A DNA stretch of 64,000 nucleotides from Escherichia phage vB_EcoM_G2248: the sequence record MK327932.1. One strand, written 5' to 3'. The notes beneath the pieces are model-generated. The model was not told the origin of the DNA. It did not search any database and saw only the letters and a list, made by a program, of their open reading frames with translations. Shown here in pieces: positions 821 to 63,961 of the stretch (the first letter of the stretch is position 1; every line of letters begins with the position of its first letter). A program made the translations under genes and the position numbers.

Positions 821-1324
821 TCAAATAATTTTCACTGGAATACTATTAACAATCTTGTATTGTACTTGATTGTCGGACCCACGCCACGGTTTTTTCGTTG
901 GCATGTCTTTAATATACCGACCATCGATGAACATGTCAACTGATTCTACAATTTTTCTTTGCTCATCATTCAATTGGTCAAGGGTATAACCGGACCATAG
1001 CCAAATATCTTTATTTGGCATCCATGATTTTACTTCATCGATGATCCGCTGTACACCCTTTAAATTGCGTTTATACAGTGGATCGCCACCTAAGAATGTT
1101 AGCCCCTGAATAAAATCAGGTCTAAGCAGATCCAGAATCAATCCCATTGTATCATCGGTGAATGGTTCCCCGTTCTTAGGATTGAGTATGCTAGCATTAA
1201 AGCAACCATCACATGCGTGTGAACATCCGGTAACGTAAAGGGAGACTCTCACTCCCTCACCGTTAACCATATCACAATCTTTAATATCGGCATAGCGTAG
1301 TTTGCCGTATGTATCAGAACTCAT
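821..1324 (-). CDS. nrdG: anaerobic ribonucleotide reductase activating protein (radical SAM)
   Basis: Cys-rich motifs CSHACDGC and overall resemblance to T4 NrdG; sits downstream of nrdD; track start TTG moved to ATG at 1324. Confidence 0.85.
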   Translation of the reverse strand: MSSDTYGKLRYADIKDCDMVNGEGVRVSLYVTGCSHACDGCFNASILNPKNGEPFTDDTMGLILDLLRPDFIQGLTFLGGDPLYKRNLKGVQRIIDEVKSWMPNKDIWLWSGYTLDQLNDEQRKIVESVDMFIDGRYIKDMPTKKPWRGSDNQVQYKIVNSIPVKII

Positions 1325-7272: not shown

Positions 7273-7296
7273 TGTTGATTCTCCTTCTTGATTAGA

Positions 7297-7332
7297 TGGG
7301 AGTATTTTACTACTCCCATTTCATGTTGTCAA
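7297..7332 (-). promoter_or_regulatory. PeSL-like early promoter with palindrome GGGAGTAGTAAAATACTCCC
   Basis: TTGACA at 7332..7327, -10 TAAAAT, palindrome spans the -10. Confidence 0.5.
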
Positions 7333-7335
7333 CCA

Positions 7336-7809
7336 CTATCTTAATCTTTGTATGAATTGTTTCTTATACTTCTTCGTGATCTCTTCTCTTGTATCCGCGT
7401 CACAGTAATCGAAACCTTCTGCGTCCATAATAGCAACCATCTCCGCTCGTGTCAAGCGTGAAAATCGTTTTACTTTATCAACAGCATATTGAGGATGTAA
7501 ATGATTGTTGGTGTAGTCTCCTTTGATGTAATTAACATAGTTTGTAGCCCAAACAACGAAATCAGCACCTAAAGCACCAACACCAAACCGTTTAAAGTCT
7601 CCGGTCAACGATCCTTCTAGGCGGTTGCAACACGAATGAAGCAATCCCCTTACGCGGCCTTGCCCTTTCCCATCTAGATCGTGGTCGTGGTCAAGATGGT
7701 TTTTGCTCATATCCTCAAAAAGTGGCAATTGACAAAGGGGGCAAATGCCCCCCTGTTTTTCGAATAGTTCTTGTTTGTACTCTTTAGCACTCTTAGCAGT
7801 CAGTAACAT
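7336..7809 (-). CDS. 49: endonuclease VII (Holliday junction resolvase)
   Basis: Motifs HLDHDHD, GxVRGLL and CxxC match T4 gp49; track TTG start moved to ATG 7809 (MLLTAK...). Confidence 0.9.
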   Translation of the reverse strand: MLLTAKSAKEYKQELFEKQGGICPLCQLPLFEDMSKNHLDHDHDLDGKGQGRVRGLLHSCCNRLEGSLTGDFKRFGVGALGADFVVWATNYVNYIKGDYTNNHLHPQYAVDKVKRFSRLTRAEMVAIMDAEGFDYCDADTREEITKKYKKQFIQRLR

Positions 7810-11180: not shown

Positions 11181-11232
11181 GTGTGTTTCGTTTTGATGTG
11201 TGTAGTATAGGGGATACGTGATCCCCTGTCAA
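11181..11232 (-). promoter_or_regulatory. PeSL-like early promoter (TTGACA, palindromic spacer GGGGATCACGTATCCCC, TATACT) plus conserved leader
   Basis: Reverse complement shows hexamers 17 nt apart with the palindrome in the spacer. Confidence 0.5.
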
Positions 11233-11240
11233 CAACTTTT

Positions 11241-11570
11241 TTATGATTTTAGTGAATTAACCACTACATCAAAATGATGTACAGAGTACACCTTATTAAA
11301 CACATATTCATCGTGTTTAGGAATAGCCCCTAATCGCTCTATTTCGCTCGCTGACACGATAAACCGTTTATCCGGTGCATTTACCTTATATGCTTCAACA
11401 ACGCACGGAAAACGCGTTTTAGCGAGTTCGGGATAGTTTTCTGACTCCATCAGGACAATGAATACCCTGTTACATTGATTGTAGAATCCTGTTTTTGATT
11501 TCATCAAGTTTTCTTCTATGTTCAAGTCGTGCAATCTTCTTTTCATGATTTCGTTGGTTCTTGTCTTCAC
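11241..11570 (-). CDS. hypothetical protein (start uncertain)
   Basis: Track ORF with GTG start; internal ATGs at 11546 and 11504 are alternatives. Confidence 0.35.
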   Translation of the reverse strand: MKTRTNEIMKRRLHDLNIEENLMKSKTGFYNQCNRVFIVLMESENYPELAKTRFPCVVEAYKVNAPDKRFIVSASEIERLGAIPKHDEYVFNKVYSVHHFDVVVNSLKS

Positions 11571-13550: not shown

Positions 13551-13602
13551 AGTGTCGTGTTTCGATGGGTGTATTATGCAATAACACCGGATCGCTGTCA
13601 AC
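13551..13602 (-). promoter_or_regulatory. PeSL-like early promoter with conserved leader ATCGAAACACGACACTTTCTAGGAGA
   Basis: TTGACA at 13602..13597, -10 CATAAT; near-identical copies elsewhere. Confidence 0.55.
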
Positions 13603-13619
13603 ACTTTCTAAGAAAAATT

Positions 13620-14785: not shown

Positions 14786-14800
14786 TTTGGTTCTCCTTTG

Positions 14801-14843
14801 TTGTCGATGTGTGCATTATGCTATACCCTATTCCGGTTGTCAA
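14801..14843 (-). promoter_or_regulatory. PeSL-like early promoter
   Basis: TTGACA at 14843..14838 with -10 CATAAT. Confidence 0.5.
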
Positions 14844-14850
14844 CACCTAA

Positions 14851-14883
14851 AAACGAAAAAGCCACCCTTTCGGATGGCTTTTT
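14851..14883. terminator. bidirectional rho-independent terminator
   Basis: Hairpin GCCACCCTTTCGGATGGC flanked by an A-run and a T-run; follows the stop of the 714-aa gene. Confidence 0.6.
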
Positions 14884-17037: not shown

Positions 17038-17059
17038 GTATTCCCCCTTGTGACTGGCA

Positions 17060-17458
17060 TTAAGCCAGTCGAGTGAGTTTATAAATGGTTTTAAAGCATA
17101 GAGCTTTGATATCGTCTAAAACGCTCTGTAACGAGCTATCAACATCATTATAAATCTCACTAGCCATTTGCGTTAACTCTTGCAAATAGGCAATTTCGCT
17201 AATCTCCTTGCGGACGACCAACGTTGGTTGATAACGACCAGTGATCCCAATATTGGTTTCAGTGAAATTATCAACCAATTCTTGCATTTCAAGATAGAAC
17301 TCTTCTAGCGCCTTATGTTTTGCATAAGAACCAGGACCAGTCACCCCAAAATGCGCAGAATGCATATAAGTAACACTCATCAGACATTCACCGATAAAGC
17401 GGTCAACTTTATTAGCTTTCCCGTCTTCGGACGTCTTTCGAAAATCACTGAATTTCAT
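17060..17458 (-). CDS. hypothetical protein
   Basis: Start placed at ATG 17458 behind RBS GGAGAATC. Confidence 0.45.
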   Translation of the reverse strand: MKFSDFRKTSEDGKANKVDRFIGECLMSVTYMHSAHFGVTGPGSYAKHKALEEFYLEMQELVDNFTETNIGITGRYQPTLVVRKEISEIAYLQELTQMASEIYNDVDSSLQSVLDDIKALCFKTIYKLTRLA

Positions 17459-17747
17459 GTTCTCGATTCTCCATATTATGCAACATAACAAATTGGTTTG
17501 CGGCATATTCCCCCATAATAAAACACTGCTTAGAGTCCATACATTTACTACGAGCGTACATCTTCATAATGTGGGCATGAAATTTCTGGCTGGTTTCAAT
17601 GGAAGGAGATATTTTGTTTACATATACTATCATCGCACCGTCGAAATAATCAGTAAAGTCACCAGTTAGATCATATTGATCAGCACTGACACTTCCGACC
17701 GCTGTCAAGCATATTGCCGTTGTTAGAGTTTTACGAATAAATGACAT
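17445..17747 (-). CDS. rI-like lysis-inhibition regulator candidate (signal-anchor plus periplasmic domain)
   Basis: N-terminal hydrophobic segment; Y-x3-C-x5-C-x3-G-x2-A-x-Q pattern resembles T4 RI (from memory); lies just downstream of tk. Confidence 0.4.
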   Translation of the reverse strand: MSFIRKTLTTAICLTAVGSVSADQYDLTGDFTDYFDGAMIVYVNKISPSIETSQKFHAHIMKMYARSKCMDSKQCFIMGEYAANQFVMLHNMENREHEIQ

Positions 17748-17780
17748 GAGTCATTCCCCCAGATTGAAAATATTCAGTTA

Positions 17781-17788
17781 TATTTATA
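17781..17788 (-). promoter_or_regulatory. late promoter TATAAATA
   Basis: Exact TATAAATA on the minus strand about 33 nt upstream of ATG 17747. Confidence 0.5.
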
Positions 17789-17815
17789 ATCTGGGGCTTT
17801 ATTTATGATTAACTC

Positions 17816-18412
17816 TTAGTTGGTAGTGCCGTCAATAAAATGTTTACGGCACACAGAAACATATTTATCCTCTGCACCAACTTCTATTTGAGCACCATCG
17901 CGAACAACATTACCCTCTTTATCTACACGAAGGACCATAGTTGCTTTCTTACCGCAATGACAAATACCCTTCATTTCGACCAGTTTATCAGCAAATGCCA
18001 TCAATGCCGCAGATCCTTCAAATAGATTGCCCTGAAAGTCGGTGCGAAGCCCATAACACAAAACAGGGATATTGGCATCATCAACCAGTGCACACAAGCC
18101 TAAAACATGCTCTTTAGTCATAAATTGGGCTTCATCTACAAACACAGCAGCAGGACGCCAGCGATCTGGTCTACGCTTACCTAGTGATTCACGATAAACC
18201 AAATCGAAAAGATCATCTGATTTAGTGAATGTGATCGCTGGAGCACTTAGACCAATTCGGGAAACAACTTCACTCTCTGAATCTCGATTATCAATCGCTG
18301 GCTTAAGAATCAATACTCGCATATCACGTTCGGTATAGTTATAAGCACTTTGTAACAGAGAAGTTGATTTGCCAGCGTTCATAGATGCATAGTAGAAATA
18401 TAATTGCGCCAT
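17816..18412 (-). CDS. tk: thymidine kinase
   Basis: P-loop SMNAGKST, VDEAQF and a C-terminal Cys cluster typical of thymidine kinase. Confidence 0.85.
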   Translation of the reverse strand: MAQLYFYYASMNAGKSTSLLQSAYNYTERDMRVLILKPAIDNRDSESEVVSRIGLSAPAITFTKSDDLFDLVYRESLGKRRPDRWRPAAVFVDEAQFMTKEHVLGLCALVDDANIPVLCYGLRTDFQGNLFEGSAALMAFADKLVEMKGICHCGKKATMVLRVDKEGNVVRDGAQIEVGAEDKYVSVCRKHFIDGTTN

Positions 18413-21375: not shown

Positions 21376-21390
21376 TTTAATACTCCTTTG

Positions 21391-21432
21391 TTTCGATGGG
21401 GGTATATTACTACCCCCGTTTTGTTGTGTCAA
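21391..21432 (-). promoter_or_regulatory. PeSL-like early promoter with palindrome GGGGGTAGTAATATACCCCC
   Basis: TTGACA at 21432..21427; the palindrome spans the -10. Confidence 0.5.
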
Positions 21433-21678
21433 CTACTTTTTCAAGATTTTTTTAATTGCGTTCCAAAGACCTTTATTCTCAGGTTGTTTTGGTTCTTCGA
21501 TCAGTGTCCATGTTCGACCGTCTAAGTGTGCACAATTTTTAAGACAAATAAAAATCTGGTGTCCCTTATCATCACGGATATAACCACTATTCGCAAATCT
21601 TTCATGTGGTGTATATTCATACAGTGTATTTGGTGTAATATACTTGCGGTTACTATAAGGTGTCATCACATACATCAT
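21433..21678 (-). CDS. hypothetical protein (GCSHL paralog family)
   Basis: Motif NCAHLDGRTWTLI; start placed at ATG 21678. Confidence 0.4.
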   Translation of the reverse strand: MMYVMTPYSNRKYITPNTLYEYTPHERFANSGYIRDDKGHQIFICLKNCAHLDGRTWTLIEEPKQPENKGLWNAIKKILKK

Positions 21679-27017: not shown

Positions 27018-27344
27018 TTAGAAAGAAACAGTTTTCAAGAAATCCAGATTTTTAGTACCGAAAACAGAAAAGTAGTGTTTTCCTTTTTCGGTTTTAGAGA
27101 AAGCGATTGTCTTCTCTACATGGTGACGGAAGCCAGACAGACGATCACCCAGGTCAAGGCGGCAAGCGTAAGTAGTGCCGTTTTCGAAAGTAACCTCGAT
27201 TTGAGTTTTGTCATATTCGCTTTCATAGGCTTTTGCTGCCGCGTCCTGTGCTTTACGCTCGAAGTCTTCGAAGTGGAATACTTCGTTTGCGTTAGCGAAT
27301 ACAGAAGATTCAGAGAAGATAACTTTAACAGATACTGGTTTCAT
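27018..27344 (-). CDS. hypothetical protein
   Basis: ATG 27344 behind RBS AAGGAGTATCAAA and a PeSL-like promoter. Confidence 0.5.
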   Translation of the reverse strand: MKPVSVKVIFSESSVFANANEVFHFEDFERKAQDAAAKAYESEYDKTQIEVTFENGTTYACRLDLGDRLSGFRHHVEKTIAFSKTEKGKHYFSVFGTKNLDFLKTVSF

Positions 27345-27360
27345 TTTGATACTCCTTAGT

Positions 27361-27415
27361 AGTTCGTGTTTCGTTTCGATGGGTGTATTATGCTATACAC
27401 CCTCTCTCGTGTCAA
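27361..27415 (-). promoter_or_regulatory. PeSL-like early promoter plus conserved leader
   Basis: TTGACA at 27415..27410, -10 CATAAT, leader ACACCCATCGAAACGAAACACGAACT. Confidence 0.55.
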
Positions 27416-27423
27416 CAACTTTT

Positions 27424-27612
27424 TTAGTCTTTTTTCATAATTTCTAGAGCAGTTTCTACAGCACCTTTCCAACCTTCCCACATAATGGACATAGTAAGGA
27501 AGTTAAAGCACCCGCAGGAATCAACCTTTTTAGAGATAAACCATTCTACAAACGCTTCGCTCATACCATGCTCTTTAGCGGATTCGCGTAATTGTTCAAT
27601 TTGGTCTTCCAT
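27424..27612 (-). CDS. hypothetical protein
   Basis: Track ORF, ATG start. Confidence 0.4.
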   Translation of the reverse strand: MEDQIEQLRESAKEHGMSEAFVEWFISKKVDSCGCFNFLTMSIMWEGWKGAVETALEIMKKD

Positions 27613-28126: not shown

Positions 28127-28312
28127 TCAGAAATATGCAATATAGTTTGCCAGTCCTACAGAGTCATCATTCGGCATTGCTTTTACTGCCAGTTCAAACC
28201 CTACTTCAACTTTCTGTTTAGCGGATTCTTCGTTATAACCCCAGATTACCAGAATAGCTACTACGTTTTCTTTGCTTACTGCTTTCAGTGCTTTAGTGAT
28301 GCGACGTGCCAT
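28127..28312 (-). CDS. hypothetical protein
   Basis: ATG 28312 behind RBS ACGGAGAATCAAATT. Confidence 0.45.
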   Translation of the reverse strand: MARRITKALKAVSKENVVAILVIWGYNEESAKQKVEVGFELAVKAMPNDDSVGLANYIAYF

Positions 28313-28330: not shown

Positions 28331-28385
28331 AGAAAGTGTGTTTCGTTTCGATGGGTGTATTATGCTATAGGCCGGATCTGGTGTC
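28331..28385 (-). promoter_or_regulatory. PeSL-like early promoter plus conserved leader
   Basis: Near-identical to the copy at 27361..27415. Confidence 0.55.
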
Positions 28386-28412
28386 AACAACTTTTTTAAA
28401 AAAATTTTAGGC

Positions 28413-28437
28413 AATAAAAAAGCCACTCCGAAGAGTG
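28413..28437 (-). terminator. rho-independent terminator
   Basis: Hairpin GCCACTCTTCGGAGTGGC with a UUCG-type loop followed by TTTTTTATT on the minus strand. Confidence 0.65.
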
Positions 28438-28440
28438 GCT

Positions 28441-28588
28441 TATAGGGAAGGTAGCGAATCTTCCTTGTCTCCAACCTGCTAGCGGCCTAGCAAGTGAATG
28501 CTTTAGCGTACCGGATCGCCCATACGCTGCAATAAATGCGGCTAGGTGACGTCCAAATCATTCTAACCGCGCTGTCTTTAGTTCACTA
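28441..28588 (-). ncRNA. candidate structured non-coding region or small RNA just upstream of a terminator
   Basis: About 145 nt without a credible ORF, more GC-rich than its surroundings, several local hairpins (GGAAG...CTTCC, GCGTA...TACGC). Confidence 0.25.
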
Positions 28589-28807
28589 TTATTTATATCG
28601 CTTTCTCTCGCGACGTTTTTGATCTTCTTCCTTGATAGAGTTAAATGCATCAAAAAGACACATGACACTAATAATAAACATAACCGTATTTTCTACGGTA
28701 TCCCACGGCTTCGCATCAGTACAGATCCCCCAAACGGTAAGAAATGCAAATAAGGCAGAAGAGATCACAAGAATGATACTTGCTAAAATATAAAAAGTCA
28801 TTTTCAT
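28589..28807 (-). CDS. small membrane protein
   Basis: Hydrophobic 72-aa ORF. Confidence 0.4.
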   Translation of the reverse strand: MKMTFYILASIILVISSALFAFLTVWGICTDAKPWDTVENTVMFIISVMCLFDAFNSIKEEDQKRRERKRYK

Positions 28808-29310: not shown

Positions 29311-29550
29311 TCATAGATCACAGAGCCATCTTACAGCACCACATAAAGCGATCAAAAGACTAGGTATAAACGAGACTAAAACAAGACTACAAAAATCATC
29401 TAAGGTAACGCCGGAATAGCTACCTACTGTAACAACACCGATCATCAGACACAGAAAGAAAACAAATGCAATCAGAAACAAAGTATTGCTAAACAGTTTA
29501 GTGATCATTAGACACCCCACGACGATCAATTTCAAAAACTTTTTTATCAT
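29311..29550 (-). CDS. small membrane protein
   Basis: Hydrophobic; start moved to ATG 29550. Confidence 0.4.
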   Translation of the reverse strand: MIKKFLKLIVVGCLMITKLFSNTLFLIAFVFFLCLMIGVVTVGSYSGVTLDDFCSLVLVSFIPSLLIALCGAVRWLCDL

Positions 29551-29701
29551 CAACGAAGCATGTCACAACTGCATCGTTGACTTCCGCAAATTGTTGTGTT
29601 ACCCACTTAAGGTCAGAGCGAAACAATGTTCTATTAATAACAAATGTTTTACCGCTCTTATCCTTACCCATAAATTTTGCTTTAACCATATCAAATTCCA
29701 T
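29498..29701 (-). CDS. hypothetical protein
   Basis: Track ORF, ATG 29701. Confidence 0.4.
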   Translation of the reverse strand: MEFDMVKAKFMGKDKSGKTFVINRTLFRSDLKWVTQQFAEVNDAVVTCFVDDKKVFEIDRRGVSNDH

Positions 29702-30322: not shown

Positions 30323-30376
30323 AAGTGTGTTTCGTTTCGATATGTGCATTATGCTATAGTCGTTTATGGTTGTCAA
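30323..30376 (-). promoter_or_regulatory. PeSL-like early promoter plus conserved leader
   Basis: TTGACA at 30376..30371, -10 CATAAT, leader ATCGAAACGAAACACACTTAGGAGA. Confidence 0.55.
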
Positions 30377-30381
30377 CACCT

Positions 30382-30412
30382 AAAAACAAAAAACCCCGAA
30401 AAATTTTCGGGG
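30382..30412 (-). terminator. rho-independent terminator downstream of 57B
   Basis: Hairpin CCCCGAAAATTTTTCGGGG followed by a T-run on the minus strand. Confidence 0.6.
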
Positions 30413-30419
30413 TATAAAA

Positions 30420-30884
30420 TTACAGTTTGGTCGTCCACTCCAGGTCTAGATCTTCGACATACTCATGAGATCGGACAATCTCTAAATCGAACTCTAGGTC
30501 AGTGCCAAATTTACGCGCACCAACATCATAAGAAAGCGTGATATGCGGTACATATTCAGGATAATCCCACGTCGCACCTAAAGCAGTGCCGATATCGTGT
30601 CTGAATTGCATGTAGTCGCTTTCAAATGCCAGCACAAGCGCATTAGTACCGGATTGAGTTTCAAACACTTTCAGATGGCATAGAGAGCCTAAGAACTTCT
30701 CCCCTTCTTCTGGGATAAACGGAACATAGACACGAGAATATAAGATAGTGCTATGCAGTTTATCACGAGGAACGGCATTAGGCAGATCGTAGAACTCCTG
30801 CAATTTTTCAATGCGGTCTAGTGTATCCTCAGTGAATTTAACCGCCGCATATGTACCTTTAACGGATTCTCTAAACGGGGTCAT
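30420..30884 (-). CDS. 57B: 2H phosphoesterase (Acb1-like anti-CBASS nuclease, gene 57B position)
   Basis: Two H-x-T/S-x motifs (HSTILY, HITLSY); located immediately downstream of 57A as in T4; track TTG start moved to ATG 30884. Confidence 0.65.
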   Translation of the reverse strand: MTPFRESVKGTYAAVKFTEDTLDRIEKLQEFYDLPNAVPRDKLHSTILYSRVYVPFIPEEGEKFLGSLCHLKVFETQSGTNALVLAFESDYMQFRHDIGTALGATWDYPEYVPHITLSYDVGARKFGTDLEFDLEIVRSHEYVEDLDLEWTTKL

Positions 30885-30886
30885 AA

Positions 30887-31147
30887 TCAAGCCTCCGTGA
30901 TCAGTTCTACTTCCTCTTCTGCGTCTTCCGCTGCTTCGTCTTTAGGGAGAAGTGCTTTCACTTCTTCGACAATAGCATCAAGGGAAACAGTCCCGTTTTC
31001 GTCTGGCTGAATACCCAGAATGCGTACCAGTTCCATCAATACACGCTCACGATCTTTCAGTTGGCCTTCTAAGAATGCGGCCTTTTCTTGAGTGTCAAAC
31101 AGACGTACTTTCAGGACATTAATCATTTGTTCATGCTGATTGGACAT
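30887..31147 (-). CDS. 57A: tail fiber assembly chaperone gp57A
   Basis: Small acidic coiled-coil protein resembling T4 gp57A; start at ATG 31147 with RBS AGGAG. Confidence 0.75.
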   Translation of the reverse strand: MSNQHEQMINVLKVRLFDTQEKAAFLEGQLKDRERVLMELVRILGIQPDENGTVSLDAIVEEVKALLPKDEAAEDAEEEVELITEA

Positions 31148-34771: not shown

Positions 34772-35245
34772 CTATTTGTTAAGCCCTTTAAAGCCAAACA
34801 CTTTCTTTAATGCATGTTCGGTGATGATCTTAAACTCCATGTTATGCTTTTGGCATAATTTCACGGCAGCTAACCATTTTTCAGTATTTTTTGTGTATGT
34901 CCATACTTCATGCATATATCGTTGCTTTGTCTTCGCGGTCATTCTTTTTGGCTTTTCCGGTGGCCTTGTCTCTTTAGCTGGTTTAACTTCCCATAAATGC
35001 TCCTTGCCATCATCAAACTTAACGTAAAAATCCATAAAGTATCTGTGTCTTTTTCCGTCTGTTGATGACTCATAAGGAATTACTACGGTCTCAGATCCCC
35101 ATTTTGCAACTCTAGGATTGCGGTCTAGCCACTGCATGATCCATCTTTCCCAGCTTGAACGGTATGTGATCTTACGTATATCCCCTTTATACTTTTCCTT
35201 ATTCTCAGGAACATACTTGCCCTTATAAGTGTTAGATCCTCCCAT
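34772..35245 (-). CDS. 4: head completion protein gp4
   Basis: 157 aa, divergently arranged next to gene 53 as in T4. Confidence 0.7.
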   Translation of the reverse strand: MGGSNTYKGKYVPENKEKYKGDIRKITYRSSWERWIMQWLDRNPRVAKWGSETVVIPYESSTDGKRHRYFMDFYVKFDDGKEHLWEVKPAKETRPPEKPKRMTAKTKQRYMHEVWTYTKNTEKWLAAVKLCQKHNMEFKIITEHALKKVFGFKGLNK

Positions 35246-35260
35246 TTTAGCACCCTTTAT

Positions 35261-35268
35261 TATAAATA
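35261..35268 (+). promoter_or_regulatory. late promoter TATAAATA for gene 53
   Basis: Exact TATAAATA about 33 nt upstream of ATG 35301. Confidence 0.6.
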
Positions 35269-35276
35269 CATAATAC

Positions 35277-35284
35277 TATTTATC
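35277..35284 (-). promoter_or_regulatory. probable late promoter GATAAATA for genes 4 and 2
   Basis: One mismatch from TATAAATA, about 32 nt upstream of ATG 35245. Confidence 0.35.
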
Positions 35285-35300
35285 AATTGAGGGTGCTAAA

Positions 35301-35855
35301 ATGCTCTTTTCTTTCTTCCCTGCCATTGAATACAACGGCAAGATGATTACTGACATTGTGCGCAATTACCGCGCATATTTCAACGCAATAATTTCTGATT
35401 ATAACATACAAACATATTACATTCAAGGTAGTCCACGACCGGAACAAGTTGCATATGAAGTATACGGAAACCAACAACTTTATTGGATCTTGCTGATGCT
35501 TAATGACGTATACGATCCGTTCCATGACTGGATCACCGATCAAGAGACAGCATATGAATCAGCCGAACAACGATATGCAAACGTAGGAGGAAATCAAGTA
35601 TTATACCACGTTGATATTGACGGAAACAAGTATTGGAATCTTACCGAATATCCGAAAGGATCAAGCAATTGGTATGATAAAGGGGATATTCATCACCGTT
35701 ATTTGCAGTTTCAGGGTGCATTATCGGCAGTAGACACACTGGAAGATGCGATCCTCCGTAATGAGGAACGACGCAAGATCAAGATCATAGATCCTACACA
35801 AATTAAACAATTTATTAACGCATTCATTCGAGAAATGGAAAAGGCTGATGTGTAA
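35301..35855 (+). CDS. 53: baseplate wedge protein gp53
   Basis: 184 aa, immediately upstream of gene 5 as in T4. Confidence 0.7.
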   Translation: MLFSFFPAIEYNGKMITDIVRNYRAYFNAIISDYNIQTYYIQGSPRPEQVAYEVYGNQQLYWILLMLNDVYDPFHDWITDQETAYESAEQRYANVGGNQVLYHVDIDGNKYWNLTEYPKGSSNWYDKGDIHHRYLQFQGALSAVDTLEDAILRNEERRKIKIIDPTQIKQFINAFIREMEKADV

Positions 35856-43518: not shown

Positions 43519-44506
43519 TGAAAATAGTGTGATCTATCGCTCAATCATTACTAGCAAATTCAGAACAGAAAAACTTCTGAACTTCTATAATTCTGTAGGC
43601 GATGGAGCAAATCAAATTACAATTTATGGAACGTTTGGACGTTCGGAGCCGTGGTCAGAAAACGAAAAAGAGGTGGGCTTTGCCCCACCTTATCCGACCG
43701 ATTCAACGGCTGGTGTTGTTGACGTGTGGACCCATATGATGGGGGCGGTTAAGATTAACAAATCACTTCTTGATGCGGTTATCCCTCGTAAAGATTGGGG
43801 TGATACCGGACAGGATAACCCGCGCACGTTCTTTATCAATGACATTGTTGTCGTAAACTCAGCACCATATAACCGAACTGATGTTGGTAGCGGCTGGATG
43901 GTGTATCGCGTAACCGATGTTCCTGATCGCGGTTACTGCTCGATTTCAAGCATTGACGCTAAAGTAGAGTGTTTGAAGTTGGGCGGAAAGTGGACCCCCA
44001 CTCATGAATCAATTGCGCCACCTGTAGGAAAGGGCGATTCTATTGATATGGGTGATGGGTATCGTTGGGAATATCTGTACACAATTCCACCTGATGCGGC
44101 GATCAACCGTTGCACCAATGAACATATTGTTGTACCGTTCCCCGATGAACTGCGACAAGATCCGGCGCGTTGGGGCTATGACAATGTGATCACCTGGTAT
44201 AATGACTATAATCTGCTTTATCGGCTGAAAGTAGTAACTTTGCGTTTTCAGGCTTATATGGACTCTGCGCAATTCCCAACTACCGCGTTAGTGGGTAATA
44301 CTGGTTTCCGTCAGTTAAGCATTATCCTTAACCCATTGGAAAAGAAAGCACGCCCTAGCGATCCAGACGTTAAAGCGGTCAAAGATAAGTACCGACCGCA
44401 AGACTTAGAGCCACACTCAGGCGAAATGATCTACATGGAAAACCGACAACCTATCGTTCGGTCATTAGATCAAACAGAACTTGTTTCTGTATTGTTTGAG
44501 TTCTAA
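43511..44506 (+). CDS. 8: baseplate wedge protein gp8
   Basis: 331 aa, synteny and size. Confidence 0.8.
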   Translation: MANENSVIYRSIITSKFRTEKLLNFYNSVGDGANQITIYGTFGRSEPWSENEKEVGFAPPYPTDSTAGVVDVWTHMMGAVKINKSLLDAVIPRKDWGDTGQDNPRTFFINDIVVVNSAPYNRTDVGSGWMVYRVTDVPDRGYCSISSIDAKVECLKLGGKWTPTHESIAPPVGKGDSIDMGDGYRWEYLYTIPPDAAINRCTNEHIVVPFPDELRQDPARWGYDNVITWYNDYNLLYRLKVVTLRFQAYMDSAQFPTTALVGNTGFRQLSIILNPLEKKARPSDPDVKAVKDKYRPQDLEPHSGEMIYMENRQPIVRSLDQTELVSVLFEF

Positions 44507-44521
44507 GTGTATGATTTTAAA

Positions 44522-44548
44522 AGCCAATTCGAGAGAGTTGGCTTTTTC
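44522..44548 (+). terminator. rho-independent terminator after gene 8
   Basis: Hairpin AGCCAATTCGAGAGAGTTGGCT followed by TTTTT. Confidence 0.65.
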
Positions 44549-63953: not shown

Positions 63954-63961
63954 TATAAATA
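63954..63961 (+). promoter_or_regulatory. late promoter TATAAATA (probably for gene 23, which starts at 63995)
   Basis: Exact TATAAATA 34 nt upstream of an ATG at 63995 at the window edge. Confidence 0.55.

Follow-up and report, generated by a model that had tools for sequence, protein, structure and literature searches.

Enterobacterial small RNAs derived from 3' UTRs, such as CpxQ and SroC, come from a long mRNA or from an internal promoter at the end of a coding sequence. These RNAs belong to the host, and their Hfq- or ProQ-dependent seeds and targets are defined. In phage T4, the stable RNAs rnaC (species 1, 139 nt) and rnaD (species 2, 119 nt) are non-coding, lie on the early-gene strand of an accessory region and adjoin tRNA genes; rnaC has a canonical tRNA T arm (CCGGGUUCGAAUCCCGG). 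To our knowledge, the T4 stable RNAs have been without a known function for some fifty years. The roles of rnaC and rnaD were still unknown at the time of a 2010 review, according to which neither T4 nor its relatives had yielded a functionally characterised riboswitch or trans-acting regulatory RNA (PMC3014915). A phage non-coding RNA used as decoy against a host defence has been described as pseudo-ToxI in phage PhiTE (PMC3475682). Cassettes of promoter and stem-loop in phages have been termed PeSL (PMC2839356).

The locus considered here lies in a stretch of 64,000 nt from Escherichia phage vB_EcoM_G2248 (MK327932.1), which was analysed as a whole (the window) and to which all coordinates refer unless a contig is named. 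A 511-nt query round the element matched 58 phage genomes at 95-99% identity, all of them Krischvirus. This genus (RB49, phi1, JSE, GEC-3S and relatives) is the 'pseudo-T-even' branch of the T4-type coliphages. RB49-type phages are recorded without tRNA genes (PMC2993671). The first-pass annotation had compared the region with the stable RNAs of T4. The position agrees with this analogy: T4 has the order 1 - 57A - 57B - ... - tRNAs - rnaD - rnaC and the present phage 1 - 57A - 57B/Acb1 - ... - dmd - ... - element, so that the element lies in the analogous accessory region after 1 - 57A - 57B and, like rnaC and rnaD, is non-coding and on the early-gene strand. The analogy does not extend to homology with the T4 RNAs. 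In contrast to rnaC, the element is without a T arm, and it ends in an intrinsic terminator. With the 3'-UTR-derived sRNAs of enterobacteria it has in common a terminator used also by the upstream mRNA and a U-rich 3' tail; its putative internal promoter, unlike those of CpxQ and SroC, is a phage late motif.

Gene order and extent of the element

Gene order was assigned from the annotations of GEC-3S and RB49 and from profile searches. The minus strand is the coding strand for the genes of the surroundings. Along this strand, gene 1 (dNMP kinase), 57A, 57B/Acb1, a 124-aa ORF and an early promoter are followed by a 52-aa ORF, dmd, five small membrane proteins, the element, a terminator, a further early promoter and a homologue of RB49 ORF117c. 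The 57B homologue at 30420-30890 (minus strand) is the anti-CBASS protein Acb1 (Pfam 1.5e-51), and dmd at 29498-29701 (minus strand) was identified from the annotation of relatives and a profile search. Because Acb1 and dmd are located there, the surroundings were regarded as a counter-defence neighbourhood; the dmd-tifA-adfA region of T4 has been termed an anti-toxin island (PMC9391042). The last of the five membrane proteins is a 72-aa homologue of RB49 ORF118c (28589-28807, minus strand) with its TAA at 28589-28591. The ORF117c homologue (DUF7421, 61 aa) after the element occupies 28127-28312 on the same strand.

As proposed in the first-pass annotation, a stretch without credible ORF extends from the TAA of ORF118 to an intrinsic terminator; its length is 148 nt (28441-28588). 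It is also GC-rich (49.3%, against 40.3% in the whole window). GC reaches 0.47 in 150-nt windows at the element, which is a local peak; a similar peak occurs at 27100-27300. Indels were read from an alignment that combined 14 isolates with metagenomic and Logan contigs and comprised 18 distinct sequences. The longest ORFs comprise 24-48 aa and are broken in relatives by insertions of 1 nt (hairpins 2 and 4) and 2 nt (hairpin 2) and by deletions of 1 nt (leader) and, in one contig (L027), 14 nt. Since such indels shift the frame between close relatives, ORFs across the element were judged non-coding; the 24-aa and 48-aa ORFs on the minus strand and a 28-aa ORF on the plus strand were rejected on account of the 1-, 2- and 14-nt indels. 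Sporadic 'hypothetical protein' calls (UPWr_E1, Delraymugoa) extend across the terminator and the next promoter and were rejected as well. In some deposited Krischvirus annotations, short CDS calls over element, terminator and promoter, or a missed ORF118, were seen at L008 486-629, L011 520-666, L009 577-678 and L018 325-435. The short CDS annotations over the element differ from genome to genome and are very likely spurious. As an RNA, the element is unannotated in the deposited genome annotations inspected, and no description of it was found in the literature covered, which included the PeSL papers.

The terminator (28413..28441, minus strand) reads AAGCCACUC-UUCG-GAGUGGCUU and then UUUUAUU. 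It consists of a 9-bp stem, a UUCG loop and a U tract (about U6), at 28441-28420 plus tail. It is annotated in GEC-3S, Makalu and G37-3 too, and in relatives it is unchanged except for the length of the U tract. Outside the RNA element follows the early sigma-70-type promoter of the next gene (TTGACA-17-CATAAT; 28359..28387, minus strand), which belongs to the repeat families D1-D5 of promoter cassettes in the window. PeSLs are recognised by a terminator stem-loop and, after it, a sigma-70-type early promoter in repeated copies, and this applies to 28359-28441 only. A PeSL is a stem-loop plus promoter of ~60-80 nt with many copies, whereas the 148-nt structured region is single-copy and lies outside that repeat; none of the other PeSL junctions of the window carries such an element. 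Repeated cassettes of PeSL type were located at 7283-7343, 11183-11243, 13552-13612, 14794-14854, 21383-21443, 27366-27426, 28338-28398, 30327-30387 and other positions. They are made up of TTGACA, a spacer that often forms a hairpin, a -10 box and a shared leader ending in a ribosome-binding site. The metagenome/Logan contigs L005, L020 and L021 all stop in the cassette that follows the element; this repeat presumably interrupts assembly.

Predicted fold and conservation

The local stem-loops noted earlier were recovered as four predicted hairpins in the minus-strand RNA. The minimum free energy (MFE) of the 148 nt is -49.0 kcal/mol (z = -2.5), and values of -65.2 kcal/mol (z = -4.0) with the terminator and of -63.6 kcal/mol (z = -4.1) for the predicted late transcript were obtained. 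The two strands have similar z-scores (-2.5 and -2.2). When every 148-nt window of the 64 kb was folded on both strands, the element was in the top 0.5% by raw MFE and in the top 1.9% after regression on GC. By these predictions, the element is clearly structured, yet other stretches of the window are more so. More stable after GC correction (residuals -17 to -24 kcal/mol) are 916-1137 (-), 17048-17343 (-), 17714-17898 (both strands), 35215-35399 and 44401-44548 (+).

All parts of the predicted fold are on the minus strand. The 5' leader GAACUAAAGACAGC (28571..28584) is single-stranded, i.e. unpaired in the consensus fold, and nearly invariant, with a G/A exchange or a 1-nt deletion, both at 28576, as the variants. 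Hairpin 1 (28538..28570) has 8 bp, an AA/C internal loop, 4 bp and the loop UUGGAC. Its diversity is 0.004, and its two variants are an A to G change that keeps a U-G pair (Brandy) and a C to U change in the loop (L019). Hairpin 2 (28499..28531) combines a 7-bp lower stem (28505-28528) with a hypervariable tip (28513-28524). Hairpin 3 (28470..28498) was predicted with 8 bp, a U bulge, 4 weaker bp and the loop GCCG. Here, too, the diversity is 0.004; a C to U exchange occurs in the loop (L024), and a C to A in the weak lower part (kaaroe) breaks one pair there. Hairpin 4 (28446..28464) pairs GGAAG with CUUCC around the 9-nt loop AUUCGCUAC in the local fold. As a rival pairing, the consensus fold offers a possible long-range helix of the 5' end UAGUGAACU with AGAUUCGCUA. 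Hairpin 4 plus linker has a diversity of 0.009, and an A to G change of L019 in the hairpin 4 region keeps its pair as G-U. The linker of hairpins 3 and 4 reads GGAG at 28469..28472, a possible site of the RegB endoribonuclease, where the RNA may be cleaved. GGAG is the RegB cleavage motif, and RB49 has a diverged RegB gene (PMC3014915).

Nucleotide diversity was computed on 15 sequences (14 isolates and the window). Upstream genes have a diversity of 0.036-0.052 overall and of 0.046-0.096 at four-fold degenerate sites. Without hairpin 2, the element has 0.007, which is 7-14 times below the four-fold sites of flanking genes. Variable columns outside hairpin 2 number 6 of 116, as opposed to 14 of 65 four-fold sites in three flanking ORFs (Fisher p = 0.0012) and 21 of 100 columns of the adjacent downstream promoter/5' UTR (p = 0.0007). 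Hairpin 1 and the leader, next to the most variable gene, have 3/51 variable columns, compared with 9/20 four-fold sites (p = 0.0003). Low diversity extends over ORF117 and its 5' UTR, and a comparison with only the 28 four-fold sites of ORF117 gives no significant difference (p = 0.38); some of the conservation may accordingly stem from a block of low diversity common to both. The variable promoter zone stands between the element and ORF117, and identity along Krischvirus genomes is mosaic.

The change of rate is located at the ORF118 stop codon and is repeated in the independent diverged lineages L005, L019, L021, L022 and L028. In L005, L019 and L021, ORF118 has 80-82% DNA identity and the element outside hairpin 2 has ~98-100%. 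The known copies all come from close relatives, with 93% identity or more over the element. Loops, linkers and leader vary as little as the stems do; drift is confined to the tip of hairpin 2. The first-pass annotation had named a lack of conservation or covariation in relatives as the outcome that would speak against an RNA; what was found is a conserved island between more variable flanks, and by these comparisons the element outside hairpin 2 is under purifying selection.

The diversity of hairpin 2 is 0.105 and that of its tip 0.21, above four-fold sites. The 18 distinct sequences contain 14 hairpin 2 alleles with 1- and 2-nt indels. All 14 adopt one shape with -10.3 to -15.7 kcal/mol: above the 7-bp lower stem come a small internal loop or bulge, 2-3 bp of upper stem and 3-6 nt of loop. 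Some tips are perfect palindromes, e.g. GGATTAATCC. One pair of the lower stem is G-C in 15 sequences, G-U in one and A-U in two, so that every step of a compensatory change is represented. Further pairs alternate between A-U and G-U or between G-C and G-U, or take all three forms G-U, A-U and G-C. Over the whole element, pairing is kept by 8 of 9 stem substitutions (binomial p = 0.02), the exception being in the base of hairpin 3. G-U pairs make up 7 of the 47 consensus pairs. These seven pairs, together with changes that pair only in minus-strand RNA, point to a constraint at the RNA rather than the DNA level. Covariation over the whole structure is weak (one pair changed on both sides; score reached by 7 of 500 shuffles), because nearly everything outside hairpin 2 is invariant. 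As for the covariation check suggested in the first pass, the outcome named as refuting did not occur, since stem changes mostly keep pairing and one series is compensatory; the covariation depends on a single hairpin, with weak whole-structure statistics.

Late-promoter motif and comparison with known RNAs

The motif TATAAATA, a T4-type late promoter motif, is located at 28590..28597 (minus strand) and shares bases with the final codons and the TAA stop of ORF118. The window contains 7 copies, with 6.25 expected by chance. The other six each stand 25-45 nt before an ORF with SD and ATG on the same strand. For a count at genome scale, a composite RB49-type genome of about 164 kb was assembled from the window and the rest of RB49. 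Here, 12 of 14 motifs stand 20-42 nt before an ORF with SD and ATG (11 by script criteria, plus the one at window position 63954, whose ORF is cut by the window end). Approximately 16 copies would be expected by chance, as extrapolated from the window expectation, and 14 were observed; with 12 of these at promoter positions, TATAAATA is therefore rare (depleted) outside promoter positions. The two exceptions without a gene start are the copy before the element and one after gene 23, outside the window. The latter precedes ~370 nt without credible ORF (L047 997-1368; RB49 94,996-95,367), which run up to the 50-aa ORF162w and a terminator. This stretch may represent either a long late leader or another non-coding transcript.

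Among the relatives examined, only the metagenomic contig L027 (MAVA01000028.1) is without the motif. There, the 14 nt GATATAAATAATAG, equivalent to 28586-28599, are deleted. This takes away both stop codons as well as the late-promoter motif, and ORF118 runs on to a TGA in the leader of the element. L027 keeps the element without the motif, so the motif is not indispensable. Furthermore, TATAAATA overlaps the codons Tyr-Lys-stop, and coding may help to conserve it. From the geometry of T4 late promoters, a late start would be expected at about 28582-28585 (G at 28584). The predicted late transcript would begin with GAACUAAAGACAGC, stop at the terminator and measure ~170 nt. At the level of sequence, the motif provides new evidence for a discrete RNA species.

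The element was compared with known RNA families. With Rfam 15, no family reached its gathering threshold in the whole window. At E up to 10, weak matches driven by the terminator were obtained, namely EF3314_EF3315 with 23.9 bits (threshold 100) and RNAI with 22.8 (47); the element alone gave one junk match. ARAGORN detected no tRNA or tmRNA in the window, and the T-loop motif (GTTCRANNC) is absent from the element sequence. A BLAST search of 50,697 phage genomes gave no relative of the element outside Krischvirus. In 5,426 E. coli genomes the terminator alone was matched, plasmids gave no match to the element, and 185,579 species genomes did not contain a 26-mer pattern from it. Host mimicry or host origin was rejected, as the searches of E. 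coli, plasmid and species genomes were without match beyond the terminator. More distant relatives were sought in IMG/VR, by one metagenome pattern scan and in protein clusters, and only Krischvirus-like contigs with the same gene order were found. Covariance model R1, built for the element, detected no second copy in the window and nothing in the tRNA/rnaC/rnaD region of T4. In the sequences searched, the element is single-copy and known only from Krischvirus.

A homologue of rnaC or rnaD was rejected on three grounds: no sequence similarity, no match of model R1 and no T arm. Six accessible segments were compared with 99 translation-initiation regions of the window, and all duplex energies were within the shuffled null. 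For ToxI, the sequence used was confirmed at 100% in pECA1039 and E. coli plasmids. A local match of 12 of 13 nt (GATTCGCTACCTT vs GATTTGCTACCTT) occurs in the loop and 3' strand of hairpin 4; it is equalled by 1.4% of random 189-nt windows of this phage, in a post hoc comparison. Tandem or direct repeats like the 36-nt ToxI unit were not found within the element. Membership in ToxI/pseudo-ToxI was rejected, the match being within chance and neither 36-nt repeats nor an Rfam match being present. The 36-nt ToxI repeat itself was detected with 90-100% identity in 200 phage genomes (163 Klebsiella, few Escherichia and Salmonella), and no Krischvirus was among the ToxI-like phage matches listed. 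A mimic of CRISPR repeats was dropped after comparison by eye with the type I-E and I-F repeats of E. coli, which gave only scattered matches. A CsrA sponge was rejected, since 4 GGA motifs in 171 nt, against ~3 expected by a rough estimate, are no enrichment. Phage sRNAs and 3'-UTR-derived sRNAs are known kinds of RNA; the element is in no described family.

Proposed RNA and rival readings

The element is non-coding, structured and conserved, lies on the minus strand in a single copy and is restricted to the genus. Of the features by which an independent sRNA gene is recognised, it has an intrinsic terminator, a lack of coding capacity, and conserved sequence and structure, and a putative late promoter stands directly before it. 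The first-pass suggestion of a small RNA or a structured 3' UTR is partly supported: structure, conservation and pair-preserving changes agree with it, and the two possibilities differ in probability. The chances are about even, in our estimate, that the element is a stable structured Krischvirus RNA of ~170 nt, made early as the 3' end of an operon mRNA and late from its own promoter, that acts in trans. Early in infection, it would form the 3' end of the mRNA of the operon consisting of promoter, 52-aa ORF, dmd, five membrane proteins, element and terminator. Late in infection, it would be transcribed alone from TATAAATA overlapping the ORF118 stop and end at the same terminator. The RNA would be recognised sequence-specifically by a protein or RNA partner and serve as sponge, decoy or regulator, beyond the capping of an mRNA. 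We infer the late start, the discrete RNA species and the trans action; the last would operate through sequence-specific recognition, because loops, linkers and leader are as invariant as the stems and one hairpin tip is free.

The main rival is a purely cis-acting 3' UTR, in which hairpins and terminator protect the dmd-operon mRNA from 3'-5' exonucleases or guide its processing; we consider it a substantial possibility, with odds clearly below even. It would account for an element placed directly after the last gene of the operon and before the operon terminator, for the stacked stable hairpins and for the retention of the element in L027 without the late-promoter motif. The GGAG in the linker and the RegB encoded by RB49 would fit processing by RegB or RNase E. 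However, protection needs structure and not sequence, and here loops, linkers and leader are as invariant as stems. A cis-acting 3' UTR is also difficult to reconcile with the other PeSL junctions of the window, which are without such an element, and it leaves the late-promoter motif unexplained. Alternatively, the late promoter may read through a structured leader into a terminator that is regulated, riboswitch-like or by a protein, as attenuator of ORF117. The layout of promoter, ~140-nt structured region, terminator and gene would suit such a leader, as would the alternative pairing of the 5' end with the hairpin 4 loop, but ORF117 has a strong early promoter of its own straight after the terminator. 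Moreover, no convincing antiterminator against the 5' arm of the terminator was seen by eye, an Rfam riboswitch match is absent, and ORF117 homologues of other phages are without the element. An attenuator is therefore considered quite improbable. The same homologues bear on a tie of the element to ORF117/DUF7421, which was rejected: model R1 did not find the element at the DUF7421 loci of ~50-kb phages (L030-L045).

Two further explanations dispense with an RNA function. The element could have no function of its own, as a decayed gene or a hitch-hiker in a recently exchanged block of low diversity, with hairpin 2 as a mutational hot spot whose changes arise, e.g., by template switching in a quasi-palindrome. 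The low diversity over ORF117 and its 5' UTR, the test against ORF117 four-fold sites alone, the mosaic identity of the genomes and the perfectly palindromic tips of some hairpin 2 alleles are compatible with this explanation. Against it, a more variable promoter zone (21/100) intervenes before ORF117, the gene bordering on the conserved leader and hairpin 1 is the most variable one (3/51 vs 9/20), and the boundary at the stop codon is sharp in all five diverged lineages, where a pseudogene would drift; in addition, stem changes keep pairing only in minus-strand RNA. We regard lack of function as unlikely. A replication origin, recombination site or protein-binding site at the DNA level would be consistent with the strong sequence conservation and with similar z-scores on both strands (-2.5, -2.2). 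Yet the seven G-U pairs would turn into A-C mismatches in a cruciform or on the opposite strand, and changes of A to G opposite U and of C to U opposite G preserve pairing only in minus-strand RNA. The element is also GC-rich, unlike an AT-rich unwinding element, and iterons or repeats were not found; a DNA-level element is thus very improbable.

Within the reading as a trans-acting RNA, a more specific role in counter-defence is conceivable. The RNA could be a decoy or sponge for an RNA-binding or RNA-cleaving immune protein of the host, e.g. a toxin of a TA system, and be boosted late. The hypervariable tip of hairpin 2 would then co-evolve with the host factor. This role is rather unlikely and was kept open because Acb1 and Dmd are encoded upstream and the dmd region of T4 has been called an anti-toxin island. 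If true, this would give the T4-type phages their first functional trans-acting small RNA. With ~170 nt and a predicted promoter and terminator, it is in any case a well-delimited, readily testable candidate in a model phage group, and a possible experimental entry to RNA-based functions in lytic T4-like phages. RB49-type phages figure in phage therapy collections, and defining the element would improve their annotation.

Homologues of the gene after the element have a wide distribution of their own. DUF7421 proteins with 74-79% identity to ORF117 are encoded in many IMG/VR phage genomes of ~50 kb, which suggests, on sequence grounds, an exchange of this gene between unrelated phage groups.
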